59,324 nucleotides of DNA from a virus (Duplodnaviria > Caudoviricetes): positions 1 to 59,324 of the IMG/VR virus record IMGVR_UViG_3300045120_000032. The stretch is one strand, 5' to 3'. Of the stretch, positions 12,439 to 30,017 are shown piece after piece. A program made the translations under genes and the position numbers. Position 1 is the first letter of the stretch. Each line of letters opens with the position of its first letter. The notes beneath the pieces were generated by a model. The model was not told the DNA's origin and ran no database searches. It saw only the letters and a list, made by a program, of their open reading frames with translations.

Positions 12439-12466
12439 GGAGTGTAGTAAGGCAAGCGCAAGGCGC

Positions 12467-12574
12467 TTGTTAGGTGCAAGACAACACGCTGTGATAACCG
12501 CGTGCGTCCACAGATGGCCGGCCACATAAGGCTGGGATACGTGAGATAGCGCAGCCCCGTGTTGCACCTAACAA
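12467..12574 (+). ncRNA. Putative structured ncRNA A (stem-enclosed)
   Basis: TTGTTAGGTGCAA/TTGCACCTAACAA 13-bp helix; internal CTGTG/CACAG and GGCTG/CAGCC hairpins; no ORF with an SD. Confidence 0.55.
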
Positions 12575-12611
12575 ACTCCTTACGTTTGAGATGGAGTGAG
12601 TAAGGCACTAT
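12568..12611 (+). promoter_or_regulatory. Repeated promoter-like module, copy 4
   Basis: CTAACA-AACTC-CTTACG, 21 nt, CACTAT; GAGTAAGGCACTATGTAGTTAGTA shared with copy 5. Confidence 0.65.
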
Positions 12612-12663
12612 GTAGTTAGTAAGCAAGTGAGAGCGTGCAAAGCATGCTTTTCAGGCATGGCGC

Positions 12664-12830
12664 TTGTAAACTGCAAGTCAAAATCCACGTAATGCCCTGT
12701 AAGGCGCCAATCGGGTTGTGGTCTGAAGTCTGTGATAAATCGGTAGCCTTCCTCGGGGACGGGTGAAGCCCCCATAAACGGACAAAATACCGTAAGGCAC
12801 AGGTGAGCAGATAAGACTTGCAGTTTACAA
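12664..12830 (+). ncRNA. Putative structured ncRNA B (stem-enclosed)
   Basis: TTGTAAACTGCAAGTC/GACTTGCAGTTTACAA 16-bp perfect helix around 135 nt with GNRA-type hairpins. Confidence 0.55.
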
Positions 12831-12867
12831 ACTCCATACACTTGAAAAGTGTGGAGTAAGGCACTAT
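12824..12867 (+). promoter_or_regulatory. Repeated promoter-like module, copy 5
   Basis: TTTACA-AACTC-CATACA, 21 nt, CACTAT. Confidence 0.65.
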
Positions 12868-12893
12868 GTAGTTAGTAGGAAGGAGGTGAGGTA

Positions 12894-13151
12894 ATGGGAC
12901 TCACAGTAAGTCAGATAAGTGATCTGATGGCGCCGGTCAAGCATAGGGCGCCTAAGACGAACGCCCTGGTAAGGGTTGCGGGTGAAGCAAGACTTGAGAA
13001 TCAACAAGTCAAGCCCGCTCAGTTCGGTCGCTTCGAGGGCAAGCAGGGTACGAAGCGCAGATCCCGCAAGGGACTGGTCAGAACGATGCCCAATGGCTAC
13101 GTGTTCTACAACGGCGTCACAGACACAGAAGTGGTCGCGTACCGGGCGTAA
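12894..13151 (+). CDS. Basic hypothetical early protein
   Basis: Perfect SD AAGGAGGTG; 85 aa, K/R-rich. Confidence 0.7.
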   Translation: MGLTVSQISDLMAPVKHRAPKTNALVRVAGEARLENQQVKPAQFGRFEGKQGTKRRSRKGLVRTMPNGYVFYNGVTDTEVVAYRA

Positions 13152-13383
13152 GCCAGCTCTGGTACGAACACCACCTTAGAACAGTCGAACAGATTGTAAA
13201 GGTGGTGTAAGGAACGATCCAATCCACGTGCCAAAATCCCTGCAAATGGGGGGTTTTGGTGTTGTCAAGATTGGCACTTCTGAAACTCTGAAAGTCTGCT
13301 CCCCCGGAAAAAGGAGATAACTAGAAATAGCTATATATAACTAAGTAGTAGTTGTAGTAAGTGTAGTATGAAAACCGGGCGAT

Positions 13384-13397
13384 CGAACATACGTTCG
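13384..13397. promoter_or_regulatory. LexA (SOS) box
   Basis: CGAACATACGTTCG matches the Gram-positive/actinobacterial consensus CGAAC-N4-GTTCG. Confidence 0.8.
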
Positions 13398-13444
13398 CGT
13401 TGCAGAGGCGCTGTCTAGAAAATCTAAGTGGCCCCTGCGCAAGG

Positions 13445-13458
13445 CGAACACACGTTCG
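13445..13458. promoter_or_regulatory. LexA (SOS) box
   Basis: CGAACACACGTTCG, a second perfect copy 61 bp downstream. Confidence 0.8.
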
Positions 13459-13503
13459 CTTGTCTTGACGCAGTTGACTTCAATGGAAGGAAGGAGTAAA
13501 ATC

Positions 13504-13599
13504 GTGTCTCAGAAGAAGATCAAAGCGGCGATCCAACATCCCAAGCAGAGCAATCTCGGCTCGCTTGGTGTGGCACTTCTCGCCGCAGCCAAGAAGTAG
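13504..13599 (+). CDS. Small peptide (31 aa)
   Basis: SD AAGGAAGGAG, GTG start; MSQKKIKAAIQHPKQSNLGSLGVALLAAAKK. Confidence 0.55.
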   Translation: MSQKKIKAAIQHPKQSNLGSLGVALLAAAKK

Positions 13600-13608
13600 C
13601 AAACCCGT

Positions 13609-13760
13609 AAGGGTTTGTAAAGCACACGGTTGTATTCTACCAAGACCCAAGATATCCAGTATCCCTATGGGTAACGCTGGTTACGCTTGGTGAGGATGGC
13701 GCGGCATGAATACCCGCGTGGGTTCAAATCCCACAATGGCCGTGTGCTTTACAAACCCTT
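13609..13760 (+). ncRNA. Putative tRNA-like ncRNA C with T-arm, enclosed by a 21-bp helix
   Basis: AAGGGTTTGTAAAGCACACGG/CCGTGTGCTTTACAAACCCTT; T-arm GTGGG-TTCAAAT-CCCAC at 13718-13734. Confidence 0.65.
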
Positions 13761-13817
13761 GCTATCTTGCATAGGGTCGCTTTACAAACCAACAACAAGA
13801 AGGAGAACTAAACAAAC

Positions 13818-14213
13818 ATGCCCCTGCTTCATCCGTCGCAGCGCAAGTCCTTCACGATCACGAAGGACACCGCTGTTTGGCTTGCCAGCCAGCTCGCAAA
13901 TGGCCGCAAGCTTCGTTTCCAGTCTTACGCGAATCGCAACTGGGTCGCCAAGATTGCGCGCACTCGGTATGGTGTCGATACCAAGTCGTATGTCACGAAG
14001 GATCAGCTTTTCGATCCGTCGTCTACGGTGGAAGGCTTCGATATCGAGCCGGGTAGCTCGCACTACATGAACCTCTACTGCGCCGAGATGGTCGCTATCT
14101 CACAGCCGGCGTTCATCAAGCCCGAGCCTGCTACCACGCCTACCACTACTTACATGAACGGTAACATCGTTCGTGTGCCCACGTACAACCGGCGCGAGGA
14201 TTACGTCCGCTAG
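13818..14213 (+). CDS. Hypothetical protein
   Basis: SD AAGGAG; 131 aa; phage-like codon use. Confidence 0.75.
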   Translation: MPLLHPSQRKSFTITKDTAVWLASQLANGRKLRFQSYANRNWVAKIARTRYGVDTKSYVTKDQLFDPSSTVEGFDIEPGSSHYMNLYCAEMVAISQPAFIKPEPATTPTTTYMNGNIVRVPTYNRREDYVR

Positions 14214-14237
14214 AAACCACATGTAAGGAGGAAGTGA

Positions 14238-14399
14238 ATGTCTGTCATCGTCTGGGATATGAACGTGCAAGCTTACATGACTGTCCATTGGGGCAGCCGT
14301 GGGTCTTGTGAGAACTACATCAAGACCCGCAAGCTTGTAGGTGACAGGCGTACCTTCCTGCTTCGCCCCGCAACATTCATCAACGAGCCGCTTTACTAG
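14238..14399 (+). CDS. Small hypothetical protein (53 aa)
   Basis: SD AAGGAGG; MSVIVWDMNVQAYMTVHWGS... Confidence 0.65.
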   Translation: MSVIVWDMNVQAYMTVHWGSRGSCENYIKTRKLVGDRRTFLLRPATFINEPLY

Positions 14400-14532
14400 G
14401 CTCGTCAAGCTAGTCTGACTTCCAACGTGAAAGGCGATTAGTTCGGGCCAAGCTCATCACGAGAGCCTCTGGTACTCCCCTATGAAAGCATACTCAACGT
14501 AATCGGCCTCAGGCTAGCTTGACAAGCCTAGT
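14395..14532 (+). ncRNA. Putative structured ncRNA D (stem-enclosed)
   Basis: 24-position helix ACTAGGCTCGTCAAGCTAGTCTGA/TCAGGCTAGCTTGACAAGCCTAGT (1 mismatch, 1 G-U); internal GATTA/TAATC, GCTC/GAGC and TATG-AAAG-CATA. Confidence 0.6.
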
Positions 14533-14568
14533 GAGCACCGCTAGGTGTCAACAAAGGAGGGTTTACAA

Positions 14569-14685
14569 ATGTACGTCCACAACGACGCGCAGGCCATCTA
14601 CACGCGCGGTGTCCTCAAGGGCAACATCAAGAACTGGCGCATGGCGTGGGCCATCCGGCAGGCCAAGCGCAACAACAAGGCATAG
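14569..14685 (+). CDS. Small hypothetical protein (38 aa)
   Basis: SD AAGGAGG; MYVHNDAQAIYTRG... Confidence 0.6.
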   Translation: MYVHNDAQAIYTRGVLKGNIKNWRMAWAIRQAKRNNKA

Positions 14686-14691
14686 CCAACC

Positions 14692-14862
14692 ATGAGAGAG
14701 AAGCCCTGCAAGGTGATGCACAAGGTGGGTACTGGCTATACCTGCAACATCTACAAGTCCGGTGCTGTCTTTATCAAGGACAAGCACTCAACTCTCTCAC
14801 ACAGGCAATACACTTCCGCAACGGAAGCACAAGCCCAGCTACGCAAGTCTGGCTGGCGGTAA
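14692..14862 (+). CDS. Small hypothetical protein (56 aa)
   Basis: ORF directly following the previous one; MREKPCKVMHKVG... Confidence 0.5.
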   Translation: MREKPCKVMHKVGTGYTCNIYKSGAVFIKDKHSTLSHRQYTSATEAQAQLRKSGWR

Positions 14863-14932
14863 CAAATGCAGCACAGTAGGGCACAGTAAGGGCCATGAGA
14901 TTTCTTAGCTAAGTTGACAACTTGGCTATCAT

Positions 14933-15063
14933 GCCCCCATAGCTCAAGGATAGAGCGCCGTTGGTAGCGGAGCTAGTCACTCTCATAAATCCAAGGTCAG
15001 TCTGACTAACTGACTACTCGACTGTTTCGAGCGGAGATTCGGGTTTGAATCCCGATGGGGGCT
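14933..15063 (+). ncRNA. tRNA-like RNA with 67 nt replacing the anticodon loop
   Basis: Acceptor GCCCCCA/TGGGGGC, D-arm GCTC-AAGGATA-GAGC, stem CCGTT/AGCGG, T-arm TCGGG-TTTGAAT-CCCGA. Confidence 0.75.
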
Positions 15064-15160
15064 GCTTACTGTCACAACGAGGCGTCAGAGAACCTGCCAT
15101 ACCAACGGTAACGGCAGCCACGCCTACCTACTGAGCGCAAAATCAAACACAACGAAAGGA

Positions 15161-15352
15161 GTGGCAAGCATGGTGTTCAAGGTCTACACAGACTTCGCAT
15201 ACGACAGCGAGCGTTACCTGATGGCTTACCACTTCGATCGTATGTGGAAGGACAGATATAAGCCTCACAACAGGACAAGCCTGCGTCAGAACATCGCAGC
15301 GCAGCGTAAGGAGAAGGATGTCTCTCTCACAACAGAGCACTACCTGTCCTAA
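15161..15352 (+). CDS. Hypothetical protein
   Basis: SD AAAGGAG; likely start ATG 15170. Confidence 0.55.
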   Translation: MASMVFKVYTDFAYDSERYLMAYHFDRMWKDRYKPHNRTSLRQNIAAQRKEKDVSLTTEHYLS

Positions 15353-15533
15353 CCTGCGACACTTGCGGCTGGAGCGTTACAACGGAAAGCTCGCACAAGT
15401 GCCCAACGCGATTGGTGACATCGTTTGCATGGGCTGTGGCGCAGATCACACAAGCCCAATCCACCGAACCGCTAGAGAGATTGCTGCTGACATAAGGCAG
15501 CACCTAATCCGACAAGGAGTGAACCTCAAGTGA
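15318..15533 (+). CDS. Hypothetical protein (CxxC..H)
   Basis: Coupled ORF with SD AAGGAG. Confidence 0.55.
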   Translation: MSLSQQSTTCPNLRHLRLERYNGKLAQVPNAIGDIVCMGCGADHTSPIHRTAREIAADIRQHLIRQGVNLK

Positions 15534-15772
15534 AAGACAGCTACAACGCAAACAGTGGTATCCAAGTGTTTGACACGCCTGACCAGATTGCGGCGTTTCA
15601 GCAGCTAGCACAGTACCACGCCTGTAAGCTGCAACTGCTAGGGATGCGGCATAGCAGCGGTAGAAGCATTATCGCGCATGTCAAGGCTACCTATGGCTTC
15701 AAGGGTAGCAACCAGTCAGTGGTCGATCAGTTCAAGCAGCACCTCATCAACGAAGGGATCATCAAGGCATGA
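15530..15772 (+). CDS. Hypothetical protein
   Basis: SD AAGGAG; overlapping start/stop with neighbours. Confidence 0.7.
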   Translation: MKDSYNANSGIQVFDTPDQIAAFQQLAQYHACKLQLLGMRHSSGRSIIAHVKATYGFKGSNQSVVDQFKQHLINEGIIKA

Positions 15773-16293
15773 CTGAATCAGGGCCAGTACCCAACGACAA
15801 GTGGTACAAGATCGGTGGTGTCCTAGCCGTTCATGGCTACTGCCACAGCAACCTCAAGACTGGCTGGTATCGGTGGCCTGACTTGACTCCCGAGAAGATC
15901 GCGTATCTGTCACAACTGGTGATCTTCGAGCCTAAGATGGAAGTGGAGGCTATCGGTTACGACCCTGATACCGGAGGCTTCACTCTCGTCAACAAGCTTG
16001 ACCCTCGTTACGATAGTCTCAAGGCTAAGTTCAATGAGGCCAATCGTGAGAGGGTCGAGTGGGCTAAGCGTGAATCTGAGAGGCGTCAACTGAACAAGGA
16101 ACTAGGTGAAATCGTCATGGCGCAGAAGAAGAAGAATCGTGAGAATGAGATCCTGCGCCAAGCTGCCACGATCATCTTCGCCAGGACACAAGAGAATCCT
16201 GGTAGCGTGGACATCAAGTTCAAGCCTGGTAGACCTGAGATGGTCAAGCTCACAAGCTTCATCCACGACGGGACTGGTGATACCAGTGAATGA
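15769..16293 (+). CDS. Hypothetical coiled-coil protein
   Basis: 174 aa, ATGA coupling. Confidence 0.7.
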   Translation: MTESGPVPNDKWYKIGGVLAVHGYCHSNLKTGWYRWPDLTPEKIAYLSQLVIFEPKMEVEAIGYDPDTGGFTLVNKLDPRYDSLKAKFNEANRERVEWAKRESERRQLNKELGEIVMAQKKKNRENEILRQAATIIFARTQENPGSVDIKFKPGRPEMVKLTSFIHDGTGDTSE

Positions 16294-16462
16294 CAAGCTG
16301 TGGTATGCGGAGCAGATCGCAAAGCTGAGTGATAAGCCTTGTGGTCTACCAATGGAGGGTAGAGAGACTGTCGCTAAGTGCGATCCTCCTGTGCGGCCTT
16401 TTGAGCGCCGGTGCTCCATGTGTAACAGGCTTGTATGGAAGTCTGACACAGGTGAATAACAC

Positions 16463-16548
16463 GGGAGTCTGACAGAACTGGATAATGTAGCGGGCTGTAA
16501 CCCCGCTGTCGTGGCTAACACGTGGAGGTTCAAATCCTCCGGCTCCCA
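16463..16548 (+). tRNA. tRNA-Tyr (GTA)
   Basis: GGGAGTC/GGCTCCC acceptor, GCGGG-CTGTAAC-CCCGC anticodon arm, long variable arm, GGAGG-TTCAAAT-CCTCC T-arm, discriminator A, no encoded CCA. Confidence 0.92.
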
Positions 16549-16549
16549 T

Positions 16550-16620
16550 TCAAGCCTACCACGCCCTATATGGTCACAAAACAAACGAGCGTGACCGGAC
16601 TACGGGAACGGTAGGCTTGA
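16550..16620 (+). other. Extended hairpin immediately 3' of tRNA-Tyr
   Basis: TCAAGCCTACC/GGTAGGCTTGA plus inner GGTCAC/GTGACC. Confidence 0.55.
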
Positions 16621-16624
16621 TCCT

Positions 16625-16668
16625 TTTACAAATTCCTTACATCTCAGCGTCCACGTGTCGTGTACTCT
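16625..16668 (+). promoter_or_regulatory. Repeated promoter-like module, copy 6
   Basis: TTTACA-AATTC-CTTACA, 21 nt, TACTCT, then GTAGATAGTAAGG as in the other copies. Confidence 0.6.
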
Positions 16669-16698
16669 GTAGATAGTAAGGCAACCCCCGCATGAAAG

Positions 16699-17061
16699 GT
16701 GGTGAAATACATGGGACTTACCCCTGAACAGATCAAGGGTCTGATGGCGAAGAAGCGCACCAAGGGCATCTACGACGAGAGGCTGATGGAAGTCTACGAG
16801 TCGGACGAGGCTGGTGTGGACGTCGCTGAGACTTGGCCGGTTGACTTCTCTGAGAAGTCTGCTACCACTCTCTATCAGGGCTTTAGCAACGCTGCTAAGA
16901 GGCTTGAGATGGAGGATGCCGTTGACATCGTGAACCGCGATGGTCACGTGTTCATCCTTATCAAGACTCGCGTGGCACTTGTTCTCGCTGAGACTACCGC
17001 TAACGGTACTGTCGAGGTCGAGGACGAGGCTGAGGCTGCTATCGAGGCCGAACTGGTCTAG
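16699..17061 (+). CDS. Hypothetical protein, paralog of 24008..24412
   Basis: Shared KRTKG(I/L)YD, ES...GV.V, TL.QGF.N and D...DG..V.LI.K; likely start ATG 16711. Confidence 0.8.
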   Translation: MVKYMGLTPEQIKGLMAKKRTKGIYDERLMEVYESDEAGVDVAETWPVDFSEKSATTLYQGFSNAAKRLEMEDAVDIVNRDGHVFILIKTRVALVLAETTANGTVEVEDEAEAAIEAELV

Positions 17062-17067
17062 TACAAC

Positions 17068-17120
17068 GAGCAAGCTAGTCAATCATATGCCTAAGCGCAA
17101 GGTGATTGACTAGCTTGCTC
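17068..17120 (+). terminator. Long hairpin (terminator or processing site)
   Basis: GAGCAAGCTAGTCAATCA/TGATTGACTAGCTTGCTC 18-bp perfect stem with no U-tract. Confidence 0.55.
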
Positions 17121-17170
17121 TCAACCTACTGCACCTTCAACTGAAACACAAAGAAACGGAGGCAACACGA

Positions 17171-17398
17171 ATGGCTGAGCCTACTAAGAAGGCTCCTGAG
17201 ATTGAGAAGTTCTTGGAGGGTATCTCAGGTAGGACTACTGCGATCCATGACAACAAGTGTATCCAGCCGCCGCTTGGCTGTGGTAAGCCTGTAGTCATGG
17301 CAGACTTCAAGAACGAAATCTCACGACGTGAGTATCGTATCTCGGGTCTGTGTCAGAAGTGTCAGGACGAAATCTTCGGAGAGGACGAGGATGCCTAA
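17171..17398 (+). CDS. Small Zn-binding phage protein
   Basis: C...GCG and EYRISGLCQKCQDEIF. Confidence 0.75.
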   Translation: MAEPTKKAPEIEKFLEGISGRTTAIHDNKCIQPPLGCGKPVVMADFKNEISRREYRISGLCQKCQDEIFGEDEDA

Positions 17399-17603
17399 AC
17401 TTCACACGTTCATTGTCGAGGGGAACTATCAGTTTCCTTTCGATATGCTGAGGTACGACCAGTGTTGGCCCCACACTTCACAAGATTCAAAGGGGATTCA
17501 CAGTGGTGATCCTTACATTGCAAGACGGGTCATACTGACAGGAACCAAACTCCCTACTGTCGCAAGGTGGGAGAGTTTTGGATGGAAGGTGGTGAATGAC
17601 TAA
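17391..17603 (+). CDS. Conserved-looking hypothetical phage protein
   Basis: FPFDMLRYDQCWP...TVARWESFGW; SD GGACGAGG. Confidence 0.7.
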   Translation: MPKLHTFIVEGNYQFPFDMLRYDQCWPHTSQDSKGIHSGDPYIARRVILTGTKLPTVARWESFGWKVVND

Positions 17604-18214
17604 TGGCATCCCCCGCGCAAGTCAAGTACATGACTGAACTGGCAGAGAAGCGCGACTTGAATAGTGAGCTAGCTTCTCCTGAACTGCGAGCATGGCTGAA
17701 CACGCCGCTTGCATTGGAGAACGCGACTAACCAGGAAGTCAATCTTATCCTGGCTGCTCTCAAGTTGCTGCCTCTCAAGGTTGGCGAGCCTGCACAGTTG
17801 AAAGCACCAAACCCCGCACAGGTGGAGTTGGCGGAAGCTGAGCAGAAGGTGGATAAGGGACATTACTTCATTGTCGATCCTTTCGATGGTGAGGAAAAGT
17901 TCTTCAAGATCGAGAAGCCTGAGCCGCCGTCACGATGGGCAGGCTACACGTTCATCAAGGTTCAAGCGTCTGACTACTTCTATCCTGTCAAGGATATCCG
18001 GCGCAGAACACTCATCCTCACTGAAATCGCTAAAGACCCAATCAACGCGATGAATGAGTATGGGATTCGTCTTGGTGTCTGTGGATACTGCGGTCGTACT
18101 CTAACTGCGGTTGACTCAAGACTCAGAGGAATGGGGCCGATCTGTGCTGCTCGCATCCTTGGACAGCCTACACCTGAACAGGATGACATCCTGAGAAAGC
18201 TGGGGTTCAAGTAA
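17603..18214 (+). CDS. DUF6011-like Zn-finger protein
   Basis: CGYCGRTLTAVDSRLRGMGPICA. Confidence 0.75.
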   Translation: MASPAQVKYMTELAEKRDLNSELASPELRAWLNTPLALENATNQEVNLILAALKLLPLKVGEPAQLKAPNPAQVELAEAEQKVDKGHYFIVDPFDGEEKFFKIEKPEPPSRWAGYTFIKVQASDYFYPVKDIRRRTLILTEIAKDPINAMNEYGIRLGVCGYCGRTLTAVDSRLRGMGPICAARILGQPTPEQDDILRKLGFK

Positions 18215-18432
18215 TGCCGCAAGTTGACGACACCATCACAGTCTATCCGTTGCAGACTGAGAAGCTTAGCGAGCTTATTCAAGATGGGCCTGCAAAGCTG
18301 AAACAGTGTGCGGCTGGTGCTGTGGTAGTCAAGCTCGACGATGGTTCACAGTACAGAGTGAACACCGATGGCTACACGATCCCGACTGGTTGGCCTTACT
18401 TCAAGGAGAGTGATGGCGTCAGTCACGCATAA
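18214..18432 (+). CDS. Hypothetical protein
   Basis: TAATG coupling. Confidence 0.6.
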   Translation: MPQVDDTITVYPLQTEKLSELIQDGPAKLKQCAAGAVVVKLDDGSQYRVNTDGYTIPTGWPYFKESDGVSHA

Positions 18433-18628
18433 GGAAATCGTAGATCAAATCATCGCTGGCGATGGTTACTACGACAACGAAGATCCGCGTGTTATCAAGG
18501 TCGTGGAGTACACGACAGATTGGGGCGGTACAGCGTGGGGTTTGATCTATGAAGGCGAAGATCCCATGCGTTACCACACCGCACCCGCTTGCCACAATCC
18601 ACGGACGTTGTGGGAAGTCACGAACTAA
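18413..18628 (+). CDS. Hypothetical protein
   Basis: SD AAGGAG before ATG 18413 (MASVTHKEIV). Confidence 0.65.
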   Translation: MASVTHKEIVDQIIAGDGYYDNEDPRVIKVVEYTTDWGGTAWGLIYEGEDPMRYHTAPACHNPRTLWEVTN

Positions 18629-18637
18629 CACCACCCC

Positions 18638-18666
18638 TTGACAAACACCACCCCCTGTGCTAGCCT
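18638..18666 (+). promoter_or_regulatory. SigA-type promoter
   Basis: TTGACA-17-TAGCCT with extended TG; intergenic. Confidence 0.7.
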
Positions 18667-18750
18667 TTAGGCAGGAAGTGAGCCGGTTGACAAAAGGCAA
18701 CGACAAATAACACAAACCCATACGTGGGAGAAACGGGAGGTAAGAAGTAA

Positions 18751-19293
18751 ATGGACAACGAGAAGCTTGAGGATTTCCAGCAGCGTGTGAAGCGTGACAG
18801 GAAGCGTTACAACAAGATCGTAGCGTGGCACCTGCAAGCGTTTAGCACGGCTGGAATCACTCTGCCGTATACGCCGGATACCACGTACATCAGCGTGGAG
18901 CACAAGAATCCGGTGTATGAGGACTACAAGAAGCCTGTCGAGGTCGATCCGACTAACCCGGCAACTGCGAGGGGTTGGGAGTATTGTTGGGATTCGGAGC
19001 TTGACGTGCCTCAGATCATCGAGACTCTCAGCAGCGTTGCCAAGTTCGCACGTAGTCAGGGCTACAAGATTGAGAAGGACTACGACAACAACTTCTCTCT
19101 CAAGGTGACTCTGCCTGGTGTCAAGGATGACGATACCGACAAGGACGTCACGCTTCACTACTACTGTGATCGTGAGGCCGTGTGTGTTGCAAGGCCCACA
19201 GGCCAGTTCAAGATCACGCCTGCTCACACGACTCCTGAGCGTGTCGAGGAGATCGTCGAGTGGGATTGCCAGAAGATCGCGTTTACCGCGTAA
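18751..19293 (+). CDS. Hypothetical protein
   Basis: 180 aa; AAACGGGAGG upstream. Confidence 0.75.
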   Translation: MDNEKLEDFQQRVKRDRKRYNKIVAWHLQAFSTAGITLPYTPDTTYISVEHKNPVYEDYKKPVEVDPTNPATARGWEYCWDSELDVPQIIETLSSVAKFARSQGYKIEKDYDNNFSLKVTLPGVKDDDTDKDVTLHYYCDREAVCVARPTGQFKITPAHTTPERVEEIVEWDCQKIAFTA

Positions 19294-19449
19294 GCTAGTG
19301 GGTCTAGTAATCGGAGTGTTCCTCGCTGCGATCATCGTGATTGGTGTACTTGCTTTGTTCTTCGGAATCGGCTTGTATGGCATTCGCGCAGATCAGCACA
19401 AGGACGACCCACTAGACAAGGAAAGCAACTTCTGGTGGTAGCGTAAAAT

Positions 19450-19548
19450 CGCTGGTGAGTCAAACATGCGGTAATGAGTGGTAGCGATGGGCAGAGCATG
19501 TGTAAGCAGGTCTGATAGTCCAGCCATTCGCCCACTAACTCACTAGCG
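19450..19548 (+). ncRNA. Putative structured ncRNA E (stem-enclosed, possible pseudoknot)
   Basis: CGCTGGTGAGT/ACTCACTAGCG; inner ACATGC/GCATGT whose loop AGTGGTAGCGATGG complements the downstream CCATTCGCCCACT. Confidence 0.5.
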
Positions 19549-19573
19549 GGGGCTTTCAAACGGGAGGTAACAA

Positions 19574-20605: not shown

Positions 20606-20606
20606 C

Positions 20607-22713: not shown

Positions 22714-23027
22714 TGGCAAAGCTTGGACTCAGACACACATCTGAGGTGCAGACACGTGACAAGTATACCAAGGTGAACATGGAGCTTGGTATGACGATCG
22801 ACGGTAAGGAGATTCCTAACGCTGCTATCCTTGGTAGCGCACTTGAGGATGCTGTGAAGCTGATTCAGGAGCGCATCACTGAGAGCTATCAGGTGGTACC
22901 GGCGCGTCAGGATGCTCCCCCTGTTGGTGCAGTTGTCACGCCTACCGCACTTCCTGTTGCTGATCCTGTAGCTGCGGCGCAAGCATCAGCTAGCCATACT
23001 GGTCTAGGCTTTCCGCCTAGCAGGTAA
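22713..23027 (+). CDS. Hypothetical protein
   Basis: SD AAGGAGG. Confidence 0.7.
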   Translation: MAKLGLRHTSEVQTRDKYTKVNMELGMTIDGKEIPNAAILGSALEDAVKLIQERITESYQVVPARQDAPPVGAVVTPTALPVADPVAAAQASASHTGLGFPPSR

Positions 23028-23028
23028 C

Positions 23029-23217
23029 ATGCCAACGGTTCCGTTGTATCAACCAGGAAACAGAAAAGTGATGAGAGTTGAACTGAGTGAAGAACAGTGG
23101 TTTGCACTCGCAGAGGAAACTTTCAAAACTGATCTAACACTTGAACAGTTTGTAAACGGAATCATTGGCAATGAAGCCAATAGACTGATCCAAGTGGGTG
23201 AAACAGATGCCGCTTGA
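23029..23217 (+). CDS. Small protein, possible ribbon-helix-helix DNA binder
   Basis: Beta-strand (KVMRVELSEE) followed by two helices. Confidence 0.45.
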   Translation: MPTVPLYQPGNRKVMRVELSEEQWFALAEETFKTDLTLEQFVNGIIGNEANRLIQVGETDAA

Positions 23218-23542
23218 TCCGAGTAAGATCAGAGCACTTCTCGAAAAGAAGAGTGCTCCGCGTACTGGCGGTGGTGGTCGCAAGAAGGCTGTCGATTTCA
23301 CGGATCGTAGTTATAAGGCATGGTTCGCACTAGAACACACTGATCCTTCGGATAAGGAGTTCTGTGCTAACGAGAAGTGTGACGATCCTCATGGTAAGTA
23401 CCGTGAGGTAGAAGGTTACGAGCCTGTACAAGTCGTCGCAGAAGTCACAACCGAGGAACACGGCACAGTCAAGATGTGTCGGTACTGCTTCACAACCAAC
23501 TGGCTAGTCAAGCGTGTGGAACAAGAGAGCCTAGCAATCTAA
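23207..23542 (+). CDS. Hypothetical Zn-binding protein
   Basis: CANEKC...CRYC. Confidence 0.6.
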   Translation: MPLDPSKIRALLEKKSAPRTGGGGRKKAVDFTDRSYKAWFALEHTDPSDKEFCANEKCDDPHGKYREVEGYEPVQVVAEVTTEEHGTVKMCRYCFTTNWLVKRVEQESLAI

Positions 23543-24042
23543 TGGCTACTGCGCTAGAGCGTCATACCCGCACGTTGTACGACAGGCTCGTTTCGTTGGG
23601 AAAATACGACGCTGAGTTTGAGTGTGAAGTCGTAGAAACGAGACTGACGCTACTGCATAGGGAGTTGGGTATACCGGCAACCTACTACGCTAAGATCCGT
23701 GCCATTCTGTTTGATGGCTATGATCCGTGTGTGGTAATGCTAGAGCGTGGTGCGGTTGGTAATCCGTCCGTAGTAGCTCTACGTCACCCGCCCTCTGAGG
23801 AAATATTTACGTCCGAGGGGTTGACATCGGTGCGGGCACGTGGTACAGTGTCCTCAGAAGCACAGAGGATACAGAAGCTTGAGGCGTGGCGGGACAGTCT
23901 TTCACCCGCCGACGAAAATCGCCTCAACGTGGTAGAAGCCTTGCGAAACCACGAATCACGGTTAGTCAAGCTAGAAGAGAGAGTGGCTAACCAAGAAGGA
24001 GAGACAAATGGCAAGACCGCGCAAGACCGCAACAACCACTGA
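23542..24042 (+). CDS. Hypothetical protein
   Basis: TAATG coupling, start MATALERH. Confidence 0.65.
   Translation: MATALERHTRTLYDRLVSLGKYDAEFECEVVETRLTLLHRELGIPATYYAKIRAILFDGYDPCVVMLERGAVGNPSVVALRHPPSEEIFTSEGLTSVRARGTVSSEAQRIQKLEAWRDSLSPADENRLNVVEALRNHESRLVKLEERVANQEGETNGKTAQDRNNH
23821..23849 (+). promoter_or_regulatory. SigA-type promoter (intragenic)
   Basis: TTGACA-17-TACAGT with extended TG. Confidence 0.65.
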
Positions 24043-24412
24043 AACGCCTGTTGAAGTGGAAACCGTGGCAGCTAACACTGTCAACACGAACACAAGGAGA
24101 ATGAAAATGCCGCTTTCCCCCGACGAAGTGCGTGCCATCTATGCGAAGCGCCGCACCAAGGGTCTGTACGATTCGCTGCTCGTCGAGTTCATCGAGTCTG
24201 GTGACAACGGCGTGTCTGTGAAGGAACAGTGGGCTGAGCTTGCTGACAAGAAGGCTCAGACGCTCAAGCAGGGTTTCGAGAACTCGAAGGATCGTAAGGG
24301 TGCTCCTGAGGGTTCGGATCAGATCGACGTCATCGTTGATGGTGAGAACGTGTATCTCATCAACAAGGTCGTCGCTGGTATCGAGGCCGAGCTTGCCGAG
24401 GCTGTTGCGTAA
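24008..24412 (+). CDS. Hypothetical protein, paralog of 16699..17061
   Basis: SD AAGGAG; alternative start ATG 24107 with its own AAGGAG. Confidence 0.8.
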   Translation: MARPRKTATTTETPVEVETVAANTVNTNTRRMKMPLSPDEVRAIYAKRRTKGLYDSLLVEFIESGDNGVSVKEQWAELADKKAQTLKQGFENSKDRKGAPEGSDQIDVIVDGENVYLINKVVAGIEAELAEAVA

Positions 24413-24434
24413 CATCGCACAAGCTTAGGAGAGA

Positions 24435-24534
24435 GACAAGCCTACTCACGTGCAAACGTGGGTAGGCTTGTTGAACTAGCGGAGACAGTTGCCACCCTTC
24501 ACCGGATCGCAACAACATTCGCTAGTTCAACAAG
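24435..24534 (+). ncRNA. Putative structured ncRNA F (leader hairpin plus closing helix)
   Basis: GACAAGCCTACTCACGT-GCAA-ACGTGGGTAGGCTTGTT overlaps CTTGTTGAACTAGCGGA/TTCGCTAGTTCAACAAG. Confidence 0.5.
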
Positions 24535-24549
24535 TCTAGTGCTTGTCTT

Positions 24550-24659
24550 GAGTATCCCGAGGACATCTGATAAGATGTTGATGTGATGGTTGGGAAGGGT
24601 GGTTCAAACCAGTGAAAGCGCGTAAGTAACTGGGGCGAGGTAGGGATACTCTTTTGTTT
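24550..24659 (+). ncRNA. Putative structured ncRNA G
   Basis: GAGTATCCC/GGGATACTC closing helix followed by a U-tract; internal GACATCT/AGATGTT and CCAGT/ACTGG hairpins. Confidence 0.45.
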
Positions 24660-24687
24660 AGTGTTTCAGTAACAAGGAGGGGTTGCA

Positions 24688-24927
24688 ATGACTAGGGAAG
24701 AGTTCATCAGTCGTGAGATTGCAACGTGGGGCGAGGATTACATCTTCGCCCTGTTCGACAAGGGTTATGTGGCTGTCGAGCTTACCGATGGTTCACACTT
24801 CAAGTGGACGTGGCACCTAGCAGGGTTGACAAACGCGCCGAACTATGGTACAGTGAAGTCCGGCAGCGTCGTGGGGTTTACTCCCGTTTACCCAGCGAAC
24901 CGCGCCTCTGGCACGAACGCGGTGTAG
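24688..24927 (+). CDS. Hypothetical protein
   Basis: SD AAGGAGG. Confidence 0.65.
   Translation: MTREEFISREIATWGEDYIFALFDKGYVAVELTDGSHFKWTWHLAGLTNAPNYGTVKSGSVVGFTPVYPANRASGTNAV
24826..24854 (+). promoter_or_regulatory. SigA-type promoter (intragenic)
   Basis: TTGACA-17-TACAGT with extended TG. Confidence 0.65.
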
Positions 24928-24961
24928 TGGGGAAGTGGCTCGTATCTGACTTGCGCCAGAT

Positions 24962-25327
24962 ATGAGTTCTTCCCCACTACCGCACTTTCCCAACGTAACA
25001 TCGAGTGAAGATTGCGTATGCCCTAGTTGCGGCAACTTCACTGACGCAAAGGGATTGAATGAAGTCACAGGTTGGTGTATTGACTGTACTACACTAAGCG
25101 CCGGTAATGCGGCTGCTGATGTTGTCGTACACCATCCGTTTGACATACCTAAGTGTATAGTTTGTGGCGAACCGATAAGAAGGTCACGGCGTTTTGCGAT
25201 CTTCTGTCGTCGCCACTCCCTGTGCCGTCGTTACGCACGCCGGTACGTGTATCTGTACTCGGAACGTAGGATCAGCAAGGCCGAAGCGTTAGCAATAGTG
25301 CTACGCGAACTAACGGGAGAGGAATAG
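24962..25327 (+). CDS. Multi-CxxC Zn-finger protein
   Basis: CPSC, CIDC, CIVC, C....C. Confidence 0.6.
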   Translation: MSSSPLPHFPNVTSSEDCVCPSCGNFTDAKGLNEVTGWCIDCTTLSAGNAAADVVVHHPFDIPKCIVCGEPIRRSRRFAIFCRRHSLCRRYARRYVYLYSERRISKAEALAIVLRELTGEE

Positions 25328-25530
25328 TGGACGACGAACTAACTCCGCAAGACTTTGACGAGCCGAAGGTTCTGACAGAAGAGTTGACTGAGTGTGCGAC
25401 TATCGTTCACAAACTCTTCGACAACGGCATGTCACTAGACGAAGTACACGAGTTTGTCGATACGATCTTCAACGCGAACATGGATGAACTCGCGTGGTTT
25501 GTGAATCACAACGGGAGAATGAATGACTAG
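25327..25530 (+). CDS. Acidic hypothetical protein
   Basis: AACGGGAG upstream. Confidence 0.6.
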   Translation: MDDELTPQDFDEPKVLTEELTECATIVHKLFDNGMSLDEVHEFVDTIFNANMDELAWFVNHNGRMND

Positions 25531-25544
25531 GAAGGGGTCGGATA

Positions 25545-27242
25545 GTGACTGAAGTGAAGCAACGCAAGCCGTTGCTCAAGCCTAAGCCGTCAGGTAAGTT
25601 TCAGATCCGAGATTTCCAGAAACAGGATCTTGCGTATATGTCTGAGCTTCCTAACGGTTCTGCTAACTGGTCGGAGATGGGTAGTTTCAAGACCAGCACA
25701 GCAGAGTGGCTGCTTGAGCTAAAGACGAAGCATATCCCTAATCCCAGGGTTCTCATCATCACTACCAAGACTGGCAAAGGGCCATATCTTGAGAGTCTGT
25801 GGGAAGTCCTGCCTGAGTGGGACGTGTACAACGTCGATGCCAAAAAGACTTCACTGGTTATCAAGGATCGAGTGACACCGTGGAACGTGAATCTTCCCAC
25901 GCCGCTCGATATGAGGCCGGTTGTTGTACTCGCGCACTACCACTGTTTCACCAACAGGTCGTGCATTCCGCAGCAGAAGAAGATGAAGGTCACGCTCACG
26001 AATGGCAAAGAGGTTGAGCGTCCGAAGCTTCTGCCTGATGGCACGATTGATATGGTGATCCCTCGTAACGCTGAGCTTCTCACGAAGCATTGGGATCTTG
26101 TCATCTGTGATGAGGCACACAGGCTCAAGAACTACGACGCACAGTGGACTCGCAACATCAAGAAGATCAAGGCTAACTACAAGCACATCATGACCGGGAC
26201 AGGTTTCGTGAATAACCCGGCAGAGATTTGGTCGCTGCTTGACTTCTTGTTTAGTGGGAAGCGTGAGAGTCCACATGCCAACATGGTCAACAGCACAGGG
26301 TACTGGAAGTTTCGTGAGCACTTCTGTGAAGAGGACGACGTTGGTGGATACCGTAAGATCACAGGTATCAAGCCTGAGGCAGAGGAAGAGTTCAAGCAAC
26401 TGGTCAGGAGCGTCGGCGTAAGACGCACGATGATCGAGTGCTTCCCTGATATCACAGAGCCTATCGAGACTGTGATTGGTGTGGATCTGAGTCCTGTGCA
26501 GCGTAAGATGTATCAGGGTATTCAGGATGAACTGTGGGCTTTGGATCAAGCGGGTGTTCCGCTGCATAGCCCGACAATCCTGTCGATGCTCAATCGTCTG
26601 CGTCAGATCAGTGATGCCACGCCGCTTGTCAAGAGTGACGAGTGGAACGAGAAGATGGAAAGGCGTGAAATCAAGGTTCAGTTGACTGAGCCTAGTTCCA
26701 AACTTGATGCAGCAATGGAGGTTATCGAGGGTCTTGAGTGGGACGACGAGCGTAAGGATCAGATCGTCGTGTTCTGTAACTTCAAGGAGCCGCTCGATAT
26801 GTTGGCTGCTCGTCTAACTAAGGCGAAGATTCCGTTTCTGCATCTCAAGGCAGAGATGGGTGATAAGCAACGTTTCGAGTATTGGCATGAGACTTGGCCT
26901 ACGAAGCAACATCAGGTCTTTCTGTCAACTCTCGACCTGGGTGCTGAGTCAATCAACCTGAGTACAGCGCACAGGGCAATCTTCATCGACCAGTCATGGA
27001 GTCCTGCAAAGAACAAGCAGGCTATCGGTCGTATCTATCGTCCGGGTCAGACTGGCGCTGTCCAGCTCATCTACATTCGCGCAAGAGACACGGTAGACTA
27101 TCGCGTCTTGGATACCGTGAATCAGAAGCACGGATGGTTCAAGTCCATCTTCGGTAACAGCGGCAGCGACAATGACACCGAGGATGATGTGGCTGCTGTT
27201 GACATAGAAGAGAACGGTGGTAACGATGCAAGTGATAGCTAG
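25545..27242 (+). CDS. SNF2-family (SF2) helicase/ATPase
   Basis: SEMGSFKT, VICDEAH, MTGT, GAESINL, QAIGRIYRPGQ. Confidence 0.9.
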   Translation: MTEVKQRKPLLKPKPSGKFQIRDFQKQDLAYMSELPNGSANWSEMGSFKTSTAEWLLELKTKHIPNPRVLIITTKTGKGPYLESLWEVLPEWDVYNVDAKKTSLVIKDRVTPWNVNLPTPLDMRPVVVLAHYHCFTNRSCIPQQKKMKVTLTNGKEVERPKLLPDGTIDMVIPRNAELLTKHWDLVICDEAHRLKNYDAQWTRNIKKIKANYKHIMTGTGFVNNPAEIWSLLDFLFSGKRESPHANMVNSTGYWKFREHFCEEDDVGGYRKITGIKPEAEEEFKQLVRSVGVRRTMIECFPDITEPIETVIGVDLSPVQRKMYQGIQDELWALDQAGVPLHSPTILSMLNRLRQISDATPLVKSDEWNEKMERREIKVQLTEPSSKLDAAMEVIEGLEWDDERKDQIVVFCNFKEPLDMLAARLTKAKIPFLHLKAEMGDKQRFEYWHETWPTKQHQVFLSTLDLGAESINLSTAHRAIFIDQSWSPAKNKQAIGRIYRPGQTGAVQLIYIRARDTVDYRVLDTVNQKHGWFKSIFGNSGSDNDTEDDVAAVDIEENGGNDASDS

Positions 27243-27540
27243 CAGCAGACAGACAGGCCGCACATCACAGCTTATCGGGTTGTGCGCAGTAGCGGAGTCT
27301 CGGCATGAAGTGTCATACATAGTGTGTCACTCTCATGCCGAGGCTTACCGCATCAACAAGCAAGCGGAGGAAATGGGATTGTCGATAGGGTTCCCACTCA
27401 CCTACGACGAGTTCCTACAAGAGCGATATGCAGGACAGAACATCAGACACTTCTTTATCGACAACGTGGAACTCTTGATTCAGCACATGACAGCAGTTCA
27501 CGTTGCGGCAATCACGGTGACCACAAATGCCGATGAGTAA
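27226..27540 (+). CDS. Small P-loop-like protein
   Basis: SRQTGRT (degenerate Walker A) and FFIDNV. Confidence 0.6.
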   Translation: MQVIASSRQTGRTSQLIGLCAVAESRHEVSYIVCHSHAEAYRINKQAEEMGLSIGFPLTYDEFLQERYAGQNIRHFFIDNVELLIQHMTAVHVAAITVTTNADE

Positions 27541-27687
27541 AGAAGAGGCTAGAGAGATTATCGCAATCGCTCTAGCTGGTGGAGGCCCGACAGCAGAGCA
27601 AGCCTCATACGCTTTTGACGCAGAATACGAGGAAGCTCTGTCTGTCCTGTATCCCATGCCAGACGACGAAAACGAAACGGGAGACTG

Positions 27688-27936
27688 ATGAAGAACGATT
27701 ACGAGATAGAGTTTGTCTTTCGTAGTCTTACGAAGGATGAGGCTCTAAAGAAAGCTGGAGAAATCCATGACTTTCTGTTTCTGACTGATCCCGAAAGAGA
27801 GTTTGAGATGTTCGTCATGGAAATCCAACCTGAAACAGAGATTGGACTACCAGGACTTGAGCATATCTCTCACTGGCCTGAGGACGCCAAAGGCCCATTC
27901 GGTGATCTTACGTGGGACAAAGACAGTGACCAGTAA
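27688..27936 (+). CDS. Hypothetical protein
   Basis: AAACGGGAG upstream. Confidence 0.6.
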   Translation: MKNDYEIEFVFRSLTKDEALKKAGEIHDFLFLTDPEREFEMFVMEIQPETEIGLPGLEHISHWPEDAKGPFGDLTWDKDSDQ

Positions 27937-28396
27937 ACGGGAGTTGCTGACAAAGAAGGAACAGGAGCTAGCCGATCTAAAACGGCTTGTGGCGATTCTC
28001 GATGAAGTCGATGTTCTGACTACAGACTTGACAGTGGAGAAGATCATCGACATAGCACCGAAGGTAGCTGCCCTAACATCTGAGGCAGACAGGCTAATAA
28101 GAAGGAACGATTTTTCGGGTGAGCTAGTTGAGCTTGAAAAGCAGTTCAAGACTTTCTTCACACTCTTCGCTCGCATCTACCACGAAGAGGTTAGCTTGAA
28201 GAACGATCTGAATAGGCTTCTGCGACTTGAGATTCGTAGGCAACAGAGACAAGCGCGTGAGGCTGTTCACATCACACCTACGATGTGTGCGTTTGAGGGT
28301 TGTAAGAAGCCCGTCCGTGTGTACGCGAATGAACTCGCGTACTGCAAACGTCATGCACGTGAAGAGGGAATCATCCTGAGAGGGAAGATCGTTTAG
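27926..28396 (+). CDS. Coiled-coil protein with C-terminal C....C...C..H finger
   Basis: CAFEGC...YCKRH. Confidence 0.6.
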   Translation: MTSKRELLTKKEQELADLKRLVAILDEVDVLTTDLTVEKIIDIAPKVAALTSEADRLIRRNDFSGELVELEKQFKTFFTLFARIYHEEVSLKNDLNRLLRLEIRRQQRQAREAVHITPTMCAFEGCKKPVRVYANELAYCKRHAREEGIILRGKIV

Positions 28397-28450
28397 CCCG
28401 CCTCTGGCACTTCCTCAGCACGAACAGAGGTTCCCAAAGGTAACAATAAC

Positions 28451-28479
28451 TTGACATTGGGGGGTGAGTCTGCTAGGAT
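28451..28479 (+). promoter_or_regulatory. SigA-type promoter
   Basis: TTGACA-17-TAGGAT with extended TG; intergenic before the recombination module. Confidence 0.75.
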
Positions 28480-28553
28480 GCAGGCTTGCCCCCCGACGAG
28501 CCGCTGTAAAATAGCGCGTCCGTCGTAAATAACACAAACGGGAAGGGTCACAA

Positions 28554-29840
28554 GTGACCACAGTAGCGCAAGGTTTGTGGCGTCCGCCGCAAATCCCGAC
28601 AAAGTACGACATCGTTCCTCTCCACAACTCGGATCGAGGTTCGTTTCTAAGATGTCGTAGGTATTGGGATTGGTCGTCGCCTGCACGTAATAACCTCAGT
28701 CTCAGGGCTGACATACATGGTGTCAATACTGACCTTTGGTTTGGTACTGGCATCCATTGGGCACTAGAACAATACTACGCTCCGGGTCAAGCTATTAGGC
28801 GTGATCCTGTCGAAGCGTGGACAACATGGTTTGACGTTCAATGGCGTGGAGGCACCGTCACAGAAGAATGGTTAGACCGTGTGTATGACCTGAATCCTCG
28901 TAAGGAACTACGTCAGAAAGGTAATTGGGTTCTCGACGTAGAGCCTGTGTACGTTGTACGAGGGCTTGAGGATATCCTTCCTGACGCAGACGGAGACATC
29001 TATGATGGACTTCGTGAGCTAGGCGTTCAGATGATGACATTCTATAAGGAGTACGCGGAGGCCAACGATGCTTTCGAGGTACTGGTCGTTGAGCATGACT
29101 TCTCAATCCCGATCTGGGATTTTGAGAACGATTGTATTCTCAAGGCTACCGATCTACGCGAGCATTCACCCAACTACGGTAAGAAGTTGGAGGTTCATAA
29201 CCGTGGTAGAATGGACGCCATTTGGTCTAAGCCCAATGGCAAACTTGGAGTCATCGACCATAAGACTTCAAGTAGGATCGACGAAGATTTCTTTGAAAAA
29301 CTCGATACCGACGAACAAGTAACCAGCTACCTATACGCGGCAGAAGTGGAGGCTAAGTATTATGACCTGCCATACGCCGGTGAACAAATGGAAGAGTGCA
29401 TCTACAACGTGCTCCGTAAAGCGTTCCCGAAACCCCCGACAGTGGTACGCGGTGGACTCTTCAGTGTCGATCGTAAAGAGGAATCCTGTACCTACGATAT
29501 GCTTACATCGTGGATGCAAGAACAAGAACCACCAGTCCTCTACGAAGAACTGTCGGAGAAGCATCAGAACTACGTTGATTGGTTGCAAGAGCTAGGTGCT
29601 GACCAGTTCATTGTACGGAAGCAGGTGCGCCGCAACAGACATCAGTTGCAGGCAGCAGGATATCTCATGTATCAGCAGGCAATGGATATGCTTGCACCGG
29701 ACGTGAGAATCTACCGCAACATGACCAATGACTACAAGTGCATGGGCTGTCAGTTCCGCGCACCGTGTCTTGCAAAGGACGACGGTGGGGATTGGGAGCA
29801 GCTAATCAATGACAACTTCACCAGGACACGCGACAGATGA
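28554..29840 (+). CDS. PD-(D/E)XK exonuclease (Cas4/RecB-like)
   Basis: GTGIH, GRMD, VIDHKT, Q..SY; N-terminal C plus C-terminal CxxC.....C (Fe-S). Confidence 0.85.
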   Translation: MTTVAQGLWRPPQIPTKYDIVPLHNSDRGSFLRCRRYWDWSSPARNNLSLRADIHGVNTDLWFGTGIHWALEQYYAPGQAIRRDPVEAWTTWFDVQWRGGTVTEEWLDRVYDLNPRKELRQKGNWVLDVEPVYVVRGLEDILPDADGDIYDGLRELGVQMMTFYKEYAEANDAFEVLVVEHDFSIPIWDFENDCILKATDLREHSPNYGKKLEVHNRGRMDAIWSKPNGKLGVIDHKTSSRIDEDFFEKLDTDEQVTSYLYAAEVEAKYYDLPYAGEQMEECIYNVLRKAFPKPPTVVRGGLFSVDRKEESCTYDMLTSWMQEQEPPVLYEELSEKHQNYVDWLQELGADQFIVRKQVRRNRHQLQAAGYLMYQQAMDMLAPDVRIYRNMTNDYKCMGCQFRAPCLAKDDGGDWEQLINDNFTRTRDR

Positions 29841-29871
29841 TTACGCGGTTAGCGGATCAGAACTGGTGTAA

Positions 29872-30017
29872 ACGGCTGTGAGCGAGCCGTCCACAAAGCA
29901 CCTGAAACCATCGGAACCAGGACAAGGCTCTCAGGCGAGCCGGGTGAGTAGCGGAGATGAAAGGAACTCTCCTGCATCCAAGCGCAGACCTGAGGTGGAC
30001 GGCTCACTGACAGCCGT
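29872..30017 (+). ncRNA. Putative structured ncRNA H (stem-enclosed, possible pseudoknot)
   Basis: 23-position helix with 2 mismatches; inner GGCTC/GAGCC, CACCTG/CGGGTG and GGAGA/TCTCC; CTCAGG (29930-35) complements CCTGAG (29989-94). Confidence 0.6.

Follow-up and report, generated by a model that had tools for sequence, protein, structure and literature searches.

Helix-framed RNA structures in the intergenic gaps of a soil myophage and its relatives

Introduction

What are the long inverted repeats that enclose structured, mutually unrelated sequences in the gaps between the genes of a myophage, and do they form one system? The question is raised by a 59,324-bp Caudoviricetes record, IMG/VR IMGVR_UViG_3300045120_000032, analysed here over its whole length (hereafter, the window), in which an original prediction had singled out nine stem-enclosed intergenic elements, here E1 to E9, as one battery of dedicated early small RNAs. 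The record is complete, with terminal repeats present; the tail sheath and tape measure genes assign it to the myophages, and the DNA runs that contain the phage carry a soil metagenome label. We find that the nine elements are genuine sense-strand RNA structures, the local instance of an arrangement found across a clade of ~57-60-kb soil myophages. The recurrent unit is a frame, a closing helix that is long and nearly perfect and in many cases follows a hairpin with which it has a strand in common; it surrounds a structured interior that differs between phages. The nine elements are, however, a mixed set and not one system: the observation was largely right, the single-system reading too broad.

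Nine helix-closed elements

All nine intergenic elements fold at the predicted positions, each with a closing helix and a structured interior. Their minimum free energies on the + strand, to which all elements and modules described here belong, have z-scores of -2.9 to -9.2 relative to 100 dinucleotide shuffles. Perfect inverted repeats of at least 12 bp with spans of 40-260 nt number 12 in the window, whereas 100 dinucleotide shuffles contain 0.74 on average and 3 at most; for repeats of at least 15 bp the numbers are 5 and 0.04. With wobbles allowed, the closing helices measure 15 bp in E1, 18 bp in E2, 27 bp in E3, 26 bp in E4, 13 bp in E6, 21 bp in E7, 9 bp in E8 and 14+8 bp in E9. Among the helices of 8-24 bp originally reported, the long ones lie far above chance, but E5 and E9 have 8-bp outer helices that, taken singly, are at chance level.

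The leader hairpin, said to share a strand with the closing helix in at least five elements, is present in the five named; the overlap is short in E1 and E2 (only 3-4 nt) and longer, 8-10 nt, in E3, E4 and E7. The TTGT...ACAA boundary was recovered in E1, E2, E3 and E7. Two further features did not survive: GNRA loops, described as common, account for just 2 of 25 predicted hairpin loops, and the claimed G-U bias of the mismatches does not hold within the window, where closing-helix wobbles are G-U in 10 cases versus A-C in 5. Searches with the Rfam 15 covariance models (the whole window at the gathering score, 11800-31000 at E <= 10, and four short scans with lax filters that returned sub-threshold noise only) matched nothing but tRNA. 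The proposal of non-coding structures formed at the RNA level on the sense strand is borne out, with tRNA as the only Rfam family at the elements. No T-tract follows any element, and the sole + strand terminator-like site within 11900-31000, at 13237-13252, lies outside them.

Relatives were collected through the PD-(D/E)XK nuclease (28554-29840), which has hundreds of relatives on contigs of ~56-62 kb, P0001-P0006 among them at 81-91% identity; an alignment of 34 nuclease relatives led to 46 IMG/VR loci, and extra stretches were fetched for five genomes. These relatives hold 82 perfect inverted-repeat arms of at least 12 bp in 615 kb, and across the clade the frames fill gaps between putative early and middle genes and between promoter-like modules. 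In the oriented relatives overall, G-U wobbles number 183 on the sense strand versus 91 on the antisense strand, which supports the reading as processed RNA that we favour below. The window elements themselves have no DNA match in the relatives' loci, except in the near-identical strain L002/L003, and most genes from 12 to 16.5 kb have no homologue in the relatives, pointing to a fast turnover of the region. Contigs from four of the DNA runs were short and of low depth and showed no informative changes inside the elements.

A conserved double hairpin at E7

The proposed strand swap between leader and closing helix proved to be a real, conserved design at E7 (24436-24538), where it is found in 12 of 12 lineages. 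In the window, a 16-bp hairpin, H1 (24436-24471), and a 21-bp helix, H2ext (24463-24538), have the strand 24463-24471 in common. A tblastn search with gene 24688 yielded 11 distinct related loci, which with the window make up the 12 lineages, and in every one of them the same architecture stands upstream of the gene 24688 homologue although the sequences are unrelated. H1 is a perfect hairpin of 12-18 bp and H2ext a perfect helix of 17-29 bp (median ~22.5), the 5' arm of H2ext overlapping the 3' arm of H1 by 6-13 nt; in L015 the overlap involves an outer H1 helix. Sense-strand wobbles in these helices are G-U in 29 cases versus A-C in 2, which argues for RNA rather than a DNA palindrome. When each state is forced, H1 and H2ext lie -4.1 to +1.9 kcal/mol apart in 11 of the 11 lineages computed, and neither state covers the ribosome-binding (Shine-Dalgarno) site or the start codon.

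Two observations concern the E7 interior. Its apical loop in the window (24492-24501) is complementary over 10 nt to the purine-rich core of E8 (24593-24602), a pairing not seen in the other lineages. Furthermore, an interior of the form GCCGGATG...ATAAC..ATGACCG lies within the E7-type helix of L025 (~2517-2609) and, in L018 (~1129-1201), in a separate hairpin downstream of the helix.

RNA families and exchanged interiors

E8 (24550-24651) belongs to a family of ~100-nt structured RNAs, family A, the training set of which comprised E8 and its counterparts in L008, L020, L022 and L025. Common to all are a covarying helix P1, a GAGG motif, a variable hairpin and a purine-rich core, with the consensus GAGG..GGAAGG.GUGGUU..AGUA..AGGUAG. 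A covariance model (R1) built on the five training sequences, on which E8 scores 96.4 bits, recovered one new member, in L013 (69.8 bits, E = 5e-12), and nothing else in 674 kb, so that family A comprises 6 lineages including the window. P1 is paired in 54 of 54 cells of an alignment that was fitted to the model, with 8 of its 9 pairs changing on both sides. Family A has no Rfam match, and a search of IMG/VR for the exact core pattern returned only four members that were already known. Its position varies, before or after the nuclease gene, and in L025 it sits in a gene-free cluster that ends in a terminator-like hairpin with a T run. A second stem-closed RNA, family B (P1-CAAGG-P2...P2'-UACAGG-P1', where an AAGG/UACA internal loop separates P1 from P2), occurs on the + strand of eight lineages (L007, L008, L009, L011, L013, L017, L020 and L030) and adjoins family A in L008, L013 and L020; it is absent from the window.

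Frames of common descent can hold different interiors. In E4 (14383-14534, z = -5.8), a hairpin at 14383-14405 shares a strand with a 26-bp helix at 14393-14534 around ~90 nt. The leader hairpin, the start of the closing helix and the 3' flank of E4 recur in G005 (L057, reverse strand, at the syntenic site) and in G002 (L051), where these homologous frames hold family E, to which the E4 interior is unrelated. The conserved family E interior measures ~60 nt, contains two covarying inner helices and is found within three different closing helices (L051 1809-1895; L057 ~1800-1890, reverse strand; L064 ~3740-3860). Conversely, adjacent cassettes within one genome may have a common outer closing helix and differing interiors, as in L017, L030 and L061 and, in the window, in the nearly identical arms of E1 and E2.

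Each window interior was also compared by local alignment with 337 interiors from the relatives against a shuffled background. E8 gave a clear match and E6 a marginal one; the alignments of E3, the E5 insert and the E7 loop reached the shuffled maximum or exceeded it by only 2, and E1, E2, E4, E9, the E5 leader and the stem-enclosed element at 16550-16620 yielded nothing above background in this set. Two candidate identities were discarded along the way. The elements are not miniature inverted-repeat transposable elements, given that the interiors are unrelated and only E1 and E2 have arms in common. Nor are they pieces of transfer-messenger RNA (tmRNA), for which no model matched in the window. 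tmRNA genes do occur inside cassette clusters of two relatives, L030 (4217-4552, 85 bits) and L017 (6286-6582, 79 bits), flanked there by cassettes with the common outer helix TTGAGCTACGT.

A promoter-like sequence was noticed in two of the fold-backs: TTGACA lies in the descending arm of E4, and on the reverse strand of L057 (3650-3790, G005) a 12-bp closing helix surrounds a promoter-like TTGACA-17-TAGGCT site.

tRNA-like elements

E5 (14883-15072) turned out to be a tRNA-like gene (14933-15063), its real closure being the acceptor stem of the tRNA and not the chance-level 8-bp outer helix at 14883-14890/15065-15072. It matches the Rfam tRNA model RF00005 with 43.8 bits (cut-off 29) over all 71 model positions; a default search at the gathering threshold, with fast filters, had passed it over. 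It has the acceptor, D and T arms, with U in place of C56, but the anticodon loop region holds 71 nt instead of 11, owing to a structured insert of 62 nt between loop positions 32 and 33, and does not form a continuous 7-nt loop on a 5-bp stem. ARAGORN calls the gene only when introns are allowed, as tRNA-Glu(UUC) (DNA ttc) with a 62-nt intron, and a canonical anticodon loop results only after removal of these 62 nt. We know of no bacterial mechanism that removes an insert of this size. Since the insert is far shorter than the known self-splicing introns of bacterial tRNA genes, E5 is read as a putative tRNA look-alike with an occluded anticodon, and not as a working tRNA.

In E3 (13599-13790, z = -7.0), a leader hairpin with a GTAA loop (13599-13618) precedes a closing helix (13607-13762) of 27 bp including 4 G-U pairs, on which a T-arm (13718-13734) is stacked within a cloverleaf-like interior; a second copy of the 3' arm, overlooked originally, lies at 13779-13790. 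The T-loop motif has 4 matches against 0.68 expected, three of which are E3, E5 and the tRNA-Tyr gene. This motif is all that E3 has of a tRNA, as a 2.1-kb Rfam scan at E <= 10 gave no match and ARAGORN called nothing. The tRNA-likeness of E5 and E3 would fit the earlier idea of tRNA mimics. The only canonical tRNA gene is tRNA-Tyr(GUA) (16463-16548, CCA not encoded), directly 3' of which the stem-enclosed element at 16550-16620, closed by an 11-bp helix and unnoticed before, immediately precedes the promoter-like module M5.

Promoter-like modules and the remaining elements

Five conserved copies of a ~60-nt promoter-like module, M1 (12168-12235), M2 (12392-12459), M3 (12566-12633), M4 (12822-12889) and M5 (16628-16695), all placed by alignment and motif, punctuate the region. 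Their motif, CTCCWTACRYYTSAR, has 5 matches, all on the + strand, against 0.22 expected. The modules are promoters only putatively, because a sigma-70 consensus scan flagged none of the five; both "early" and "promoter" are labels that we infer from sequence. M2, which contains a 10-bp inverted repeat of its own (12400-12445), lies directly upstream of E1, and M4 is followed by gene 12894-13151.

As originally noted, two elements sit alone between consecutive modules, E1 between M2 and M3 and E2 between M3 and M4, neither with a gene behind it before the next module. E1 (12453-12574, z = -4.6) consists of a leader hairpin (12453-12469) and a 13-15-bp helix (12467-12479/12562-12574) around 82 nt, and E2 (12623-12830, z = -3.3) of a leader (12623-12629/12661-12667) and a 16-18-bp helix (12664-12830) around 135 nt. 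L064 shows the same placement: upstream of its gene 12894 homologue lie two promoter-like modules with a family E cassette as the sole element between them.

E6 (19450-19548, z = -3.2) has an 11-13-bp closing helix around 77 nt, and lies directly upstream of gene 19574; its single, marginal relative, L046 3243-3327, shows compensation in an inner helix. E9 (29872-30017, z = -5.7), directly 3' of the nuclease gene, is closed by an 8+2+11-bp helix around ~100 nt; its position is occupied in the relatives by other stem-closed RNAs. A perfect 18-bp intercistronic hairpin at 17068-17120 had likewise been overlooked.

Genome context

The + strand genes run from ~12.2 to 40.5 kb and have AGGAG-type ribosome sites; they include a SNF2 helicase (25545-27242), a DUF3987 primase (32350-34530) and a family A DNA polymerase fused to a UDG domain (36114-38639), the closest match of which has 27% identity. 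Pfam and PHROGs functions among the 56 open reading frames (ORFs) scanned, out of a set of 78, cover replication, recombination, a methylase, lysis and structural proteins, and no RNA-handling protein was found among these 56. Neither the whole virus nor the stretch 12100-20000 has a DNA match among GenBank phages. The 17603-18211 protein, used to scan metagenomes, retrieved only relatives at 56% identity, and a scan of virus collections with the 12894 protein family added two contigs.

Several features lie outside the elements. The stretch 10600-11830 is GC-rich (0.64), full of ACGCCCACGT-like words repeated in direct and inverted orientation, and falls inside a 372-aa minus-strand ORF without a Pfam match; L063 and L064 hold similar GC-rich repetitive DNA at the matching place. 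At the start of the + strand region, 12040-12100 contains a ~16-nt word (ATTAGTCGTGTGCGCG-like) three times in tandem, and at the corresponding place in G005 and L064 another word, CAATCATTGTG, occurs 3-4 times; these tandem words may be iterons or operators. The AT-rich gap 13152-13500 contains, besides the terminator-like hairpin (13237-13252), the palindromes CGAACATACGTTCG and GCGAACACACGTTCGC, which look like conserved operator sites because they recur nearly unchanged in G005, L061 and L063. Between M1 and M2, only a 39-codon ORF at 12279-12398 is a likely gene; it has a good ribosome site and encodes a hydrophobic peptide with a basic tail.

Processing and its alternatives

What might such frames do? 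We tentatively favour, with somewhat less than even confidence, a role in RNase III-type processing and stability punctuation, in which the frames would surround small RNAs of differing kinds. Under this model, the helices of about two turns (E3, E4, E7, E2 and 17068-17120) would be cut by a host double-strand-specific RNase of the RNase III type. The cut would separate the cistrons; the freed 5' arm would snap back into the leader hairpin and cap the 3' end of the upstream RNA; and the interior would be set free as a small stem-closed RNA. The candidate interiors comprise the 100-nt RNA of E8, the tRNA-Glu-like E5, the T-arm cloverleaf of E3 and the orphans E1, E2, E4 and E9. Transcription, cleavage, release and any action in trans are all predicted here.

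A published account of E. coli RNase III substrates, in which the R1.1 substrate also appears, gives about two helical turns as the main length rule (PMC1540722). Measured against this rule, which is that of E. coli and may not be the host's, E3 (27 bp), E4 (26 bp) and E7 (21 bp) are long enough and E2 and 17068-17120 (18 bp each) nearly so, and E1 (15 bp), E6 (13 bp), E8 (9 bp) and E5 (8 bp) fall short. RNase III substrates do span the sizes of these helices from 18 to 27 bp. Cut-and-protect punctuation is preferred because the two-turn helices fit the length rule and because their intercistronic placement parallels that in T7. We also count in its favour the excess of long inverted repeats, the E7 architecture, the recurrence of frames around differing interiors, the lone family E cassette of L064, the conserved interiors of families A and E, and the tRNA-like E5 together with the tmRNA genes in clusters of two relatives.

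A number of results weigh against it. Typical cropping by RNase III requires longer stems than those of E8 (9 bp), E5 (8 bp), E6 (11-13 bp) and 16550-16620 (11 bp), and the leader overlap in E1 and E2 is confined to 3-4 nt. The wobbles of the window's own closing helices are only 10 G-U to 5 A-C; a genome-wide count over the + sense region gave 13 versus 18, with no strand bias, and the reverse strand folds about equally well. The near-equal energies of H1 and H2ext at E7 stem in part from the short flanking direct repeat itself. Finally, a generic test for strand-sharing hairpins (at least 6 nt) in 47 elements of the relatives found 17 upstream versus 10 downstream, a weak difference. Because their stems are too short, E5, E6 and E8 are better seen as ordinary structured RNAs that occupy the same gaps. 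With E8 closed by an ordinary 9-bp helix and E5 being a tRNA-like gene, the idea of one battery of a single design had to be given up.

An unlikely alternative is that the elements are conformational switches in cis, in which mutually exclusive helices gate transcriptional read-through or the translation of the gene that follows, and no RNA is cut out. This would account for the near-isoenergetic alternative helices kept in 11 of 11 lineages, and E3, E4, E6, E7, E8 and E9 do lie directly upstream of genes with Shine-Dalgarno sites. However, at E7 both states leave the Shine-Dalgarno site and the start codon free, no element is followed by a T-tract, E1 and E2 have no gene to control before the next module, and family A changes its position between phages, being part of a gene-free cluster in L025.

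In the reading put forward originally, the interiors are early RNAs dedicated to action in trans, as decoys, tRNA mimics or anti-defence RNAs, and the frames serve only as a means of delivery. Such a role is compatible with processing, and we consider this reading unlikely. The free-standing position of E1, E2 and the family E cassette of L064 between promoter-like modules speaks for it, as do the tRNA-like character of E5 and E3, the quick turnover of the region and the exchange of the interior within a homologous frame. Against it, none of the 56 ORFs scanned encodes an RNA-handling protein, and four interiors are without detectable relatives, so that selection on these four is not supported. 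A more ambitious version joins this proposal to the processing model: standard frames would be cropped, much as clustered microRNA precursors are, to release a fast-turnover repertoire that acts in trans on host translation or defence. Recombination at the frames would bring in new interiors, and after each cut the upstream message would be re-capped by the strand-swap hairpin. Its repertoire would include the blocked-anticodon tRNA-Glu look-alike, the T-arm RNA and the RNAs of families A and E; we regard such a modular cassette system as improbable on present grounds.

Much less probable still is a function at the DNA level, whether as mobile palindromes, protein-binding palindromes, or hairpin promoters or priming sites on single-stranded DNA. 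The lack of a clear strand bias in the window helices and the two TTGACA sequences, in the descending arm of E4 and in the G005 fold-back, would be in keeping with it. Yet the sense-strand G-U excess, both at E7 across the 12 lineages and in the relatives overall, the covariation of helices whose sequence is not kept, and the retention of unpaired sequence and inner helices in families A and E all point to RNA, and there are neither multi-copy interiors nor any pattern of terminal repeats with target duplication. Chance hairpins or ordinary intrinsic terminators can be dismissed almost entirely, for although the 8-9-bp outer helices of E5, E8 and E9 are singly at chance level, the shuffle statistics, the conservation in relatives and the absence of T-tracts contradict this explanation.

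Comparison with known systems

Among titles and abstracts in the literature we found no description of such cassettes, and within the window the E8 family and the E7 double hairpin are without an Rfam match. The elements resemble miniature inverted-repeat elements and repetitive extragenic palindromes in being intergenic fold-backs bounded by inverted repeats, but differ in their unrelated interiors, covarying arms, sense-strand G-U bias in the relatives and lack of target duplication. In the bacterial Y RNAs (YrlA), the 5' and 3' ends pair into a long helix that has a tRNA-like, T-arm-bearing domain at its tip. E3, a long helix topped by a T-arm domain, is built along similar lines, but it has no Rfam match and no Ro/TROVE protein is encoded among the 56 ORFs; the idea of a Ro/Y-RNA system was rejected, as neither TROVE nor any other RNA-handling domain was found in this set. 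With tRNA (RF00005), E5 has the acceptor, D and T arms in common and differs by 62 extra nt and the U for C56, whereas E3 has only the T-arm.

Bacterial rRNA precursors are released when a long flanking helix is cut by a double-strand nuclease. The frames described here are likewise long helices formed from the flanks of the enclosed RNA, which, however, measures only 60-135 nt and differs between related phages, with many frames per genome. The early region of T7, in which RNase III processing signals lie between the genes of a multi-gene early transcript, offers a further parallel. There, as here, intercistronic hairpins of about two turns resemble each other within a genome, and the upstream RNA ends in a hairpin once the cut is made, which in our case is only predicted. 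Unlike the T7 sites, which are interrupted by internal loops, many of the helices described here are perfect, are joined to a strand-sharing second hairpin in a two-state design found in 12 of 12 lineages, and in several cases enclose 60-135 nt of independently structured RNA.

We conclude that the elements probably represent known phage RNA punctuation in a new form, and that the RNase III idea is itself plausible. If the frames are processing sites, they would represent T7-style RNase III punctuation elaborated into a conserved two-state hairpin and into carriers of small RNAs. In the clade, several kinds of RNA without an Rfam match, namely families A, B and E and the double hairpin of E7, would then stand beside a tRNA-like RNA whose anticodon is occluded. 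This would further indicate a fast-evolving, non-protein part of phage early regions that gene-centred annotation misses.

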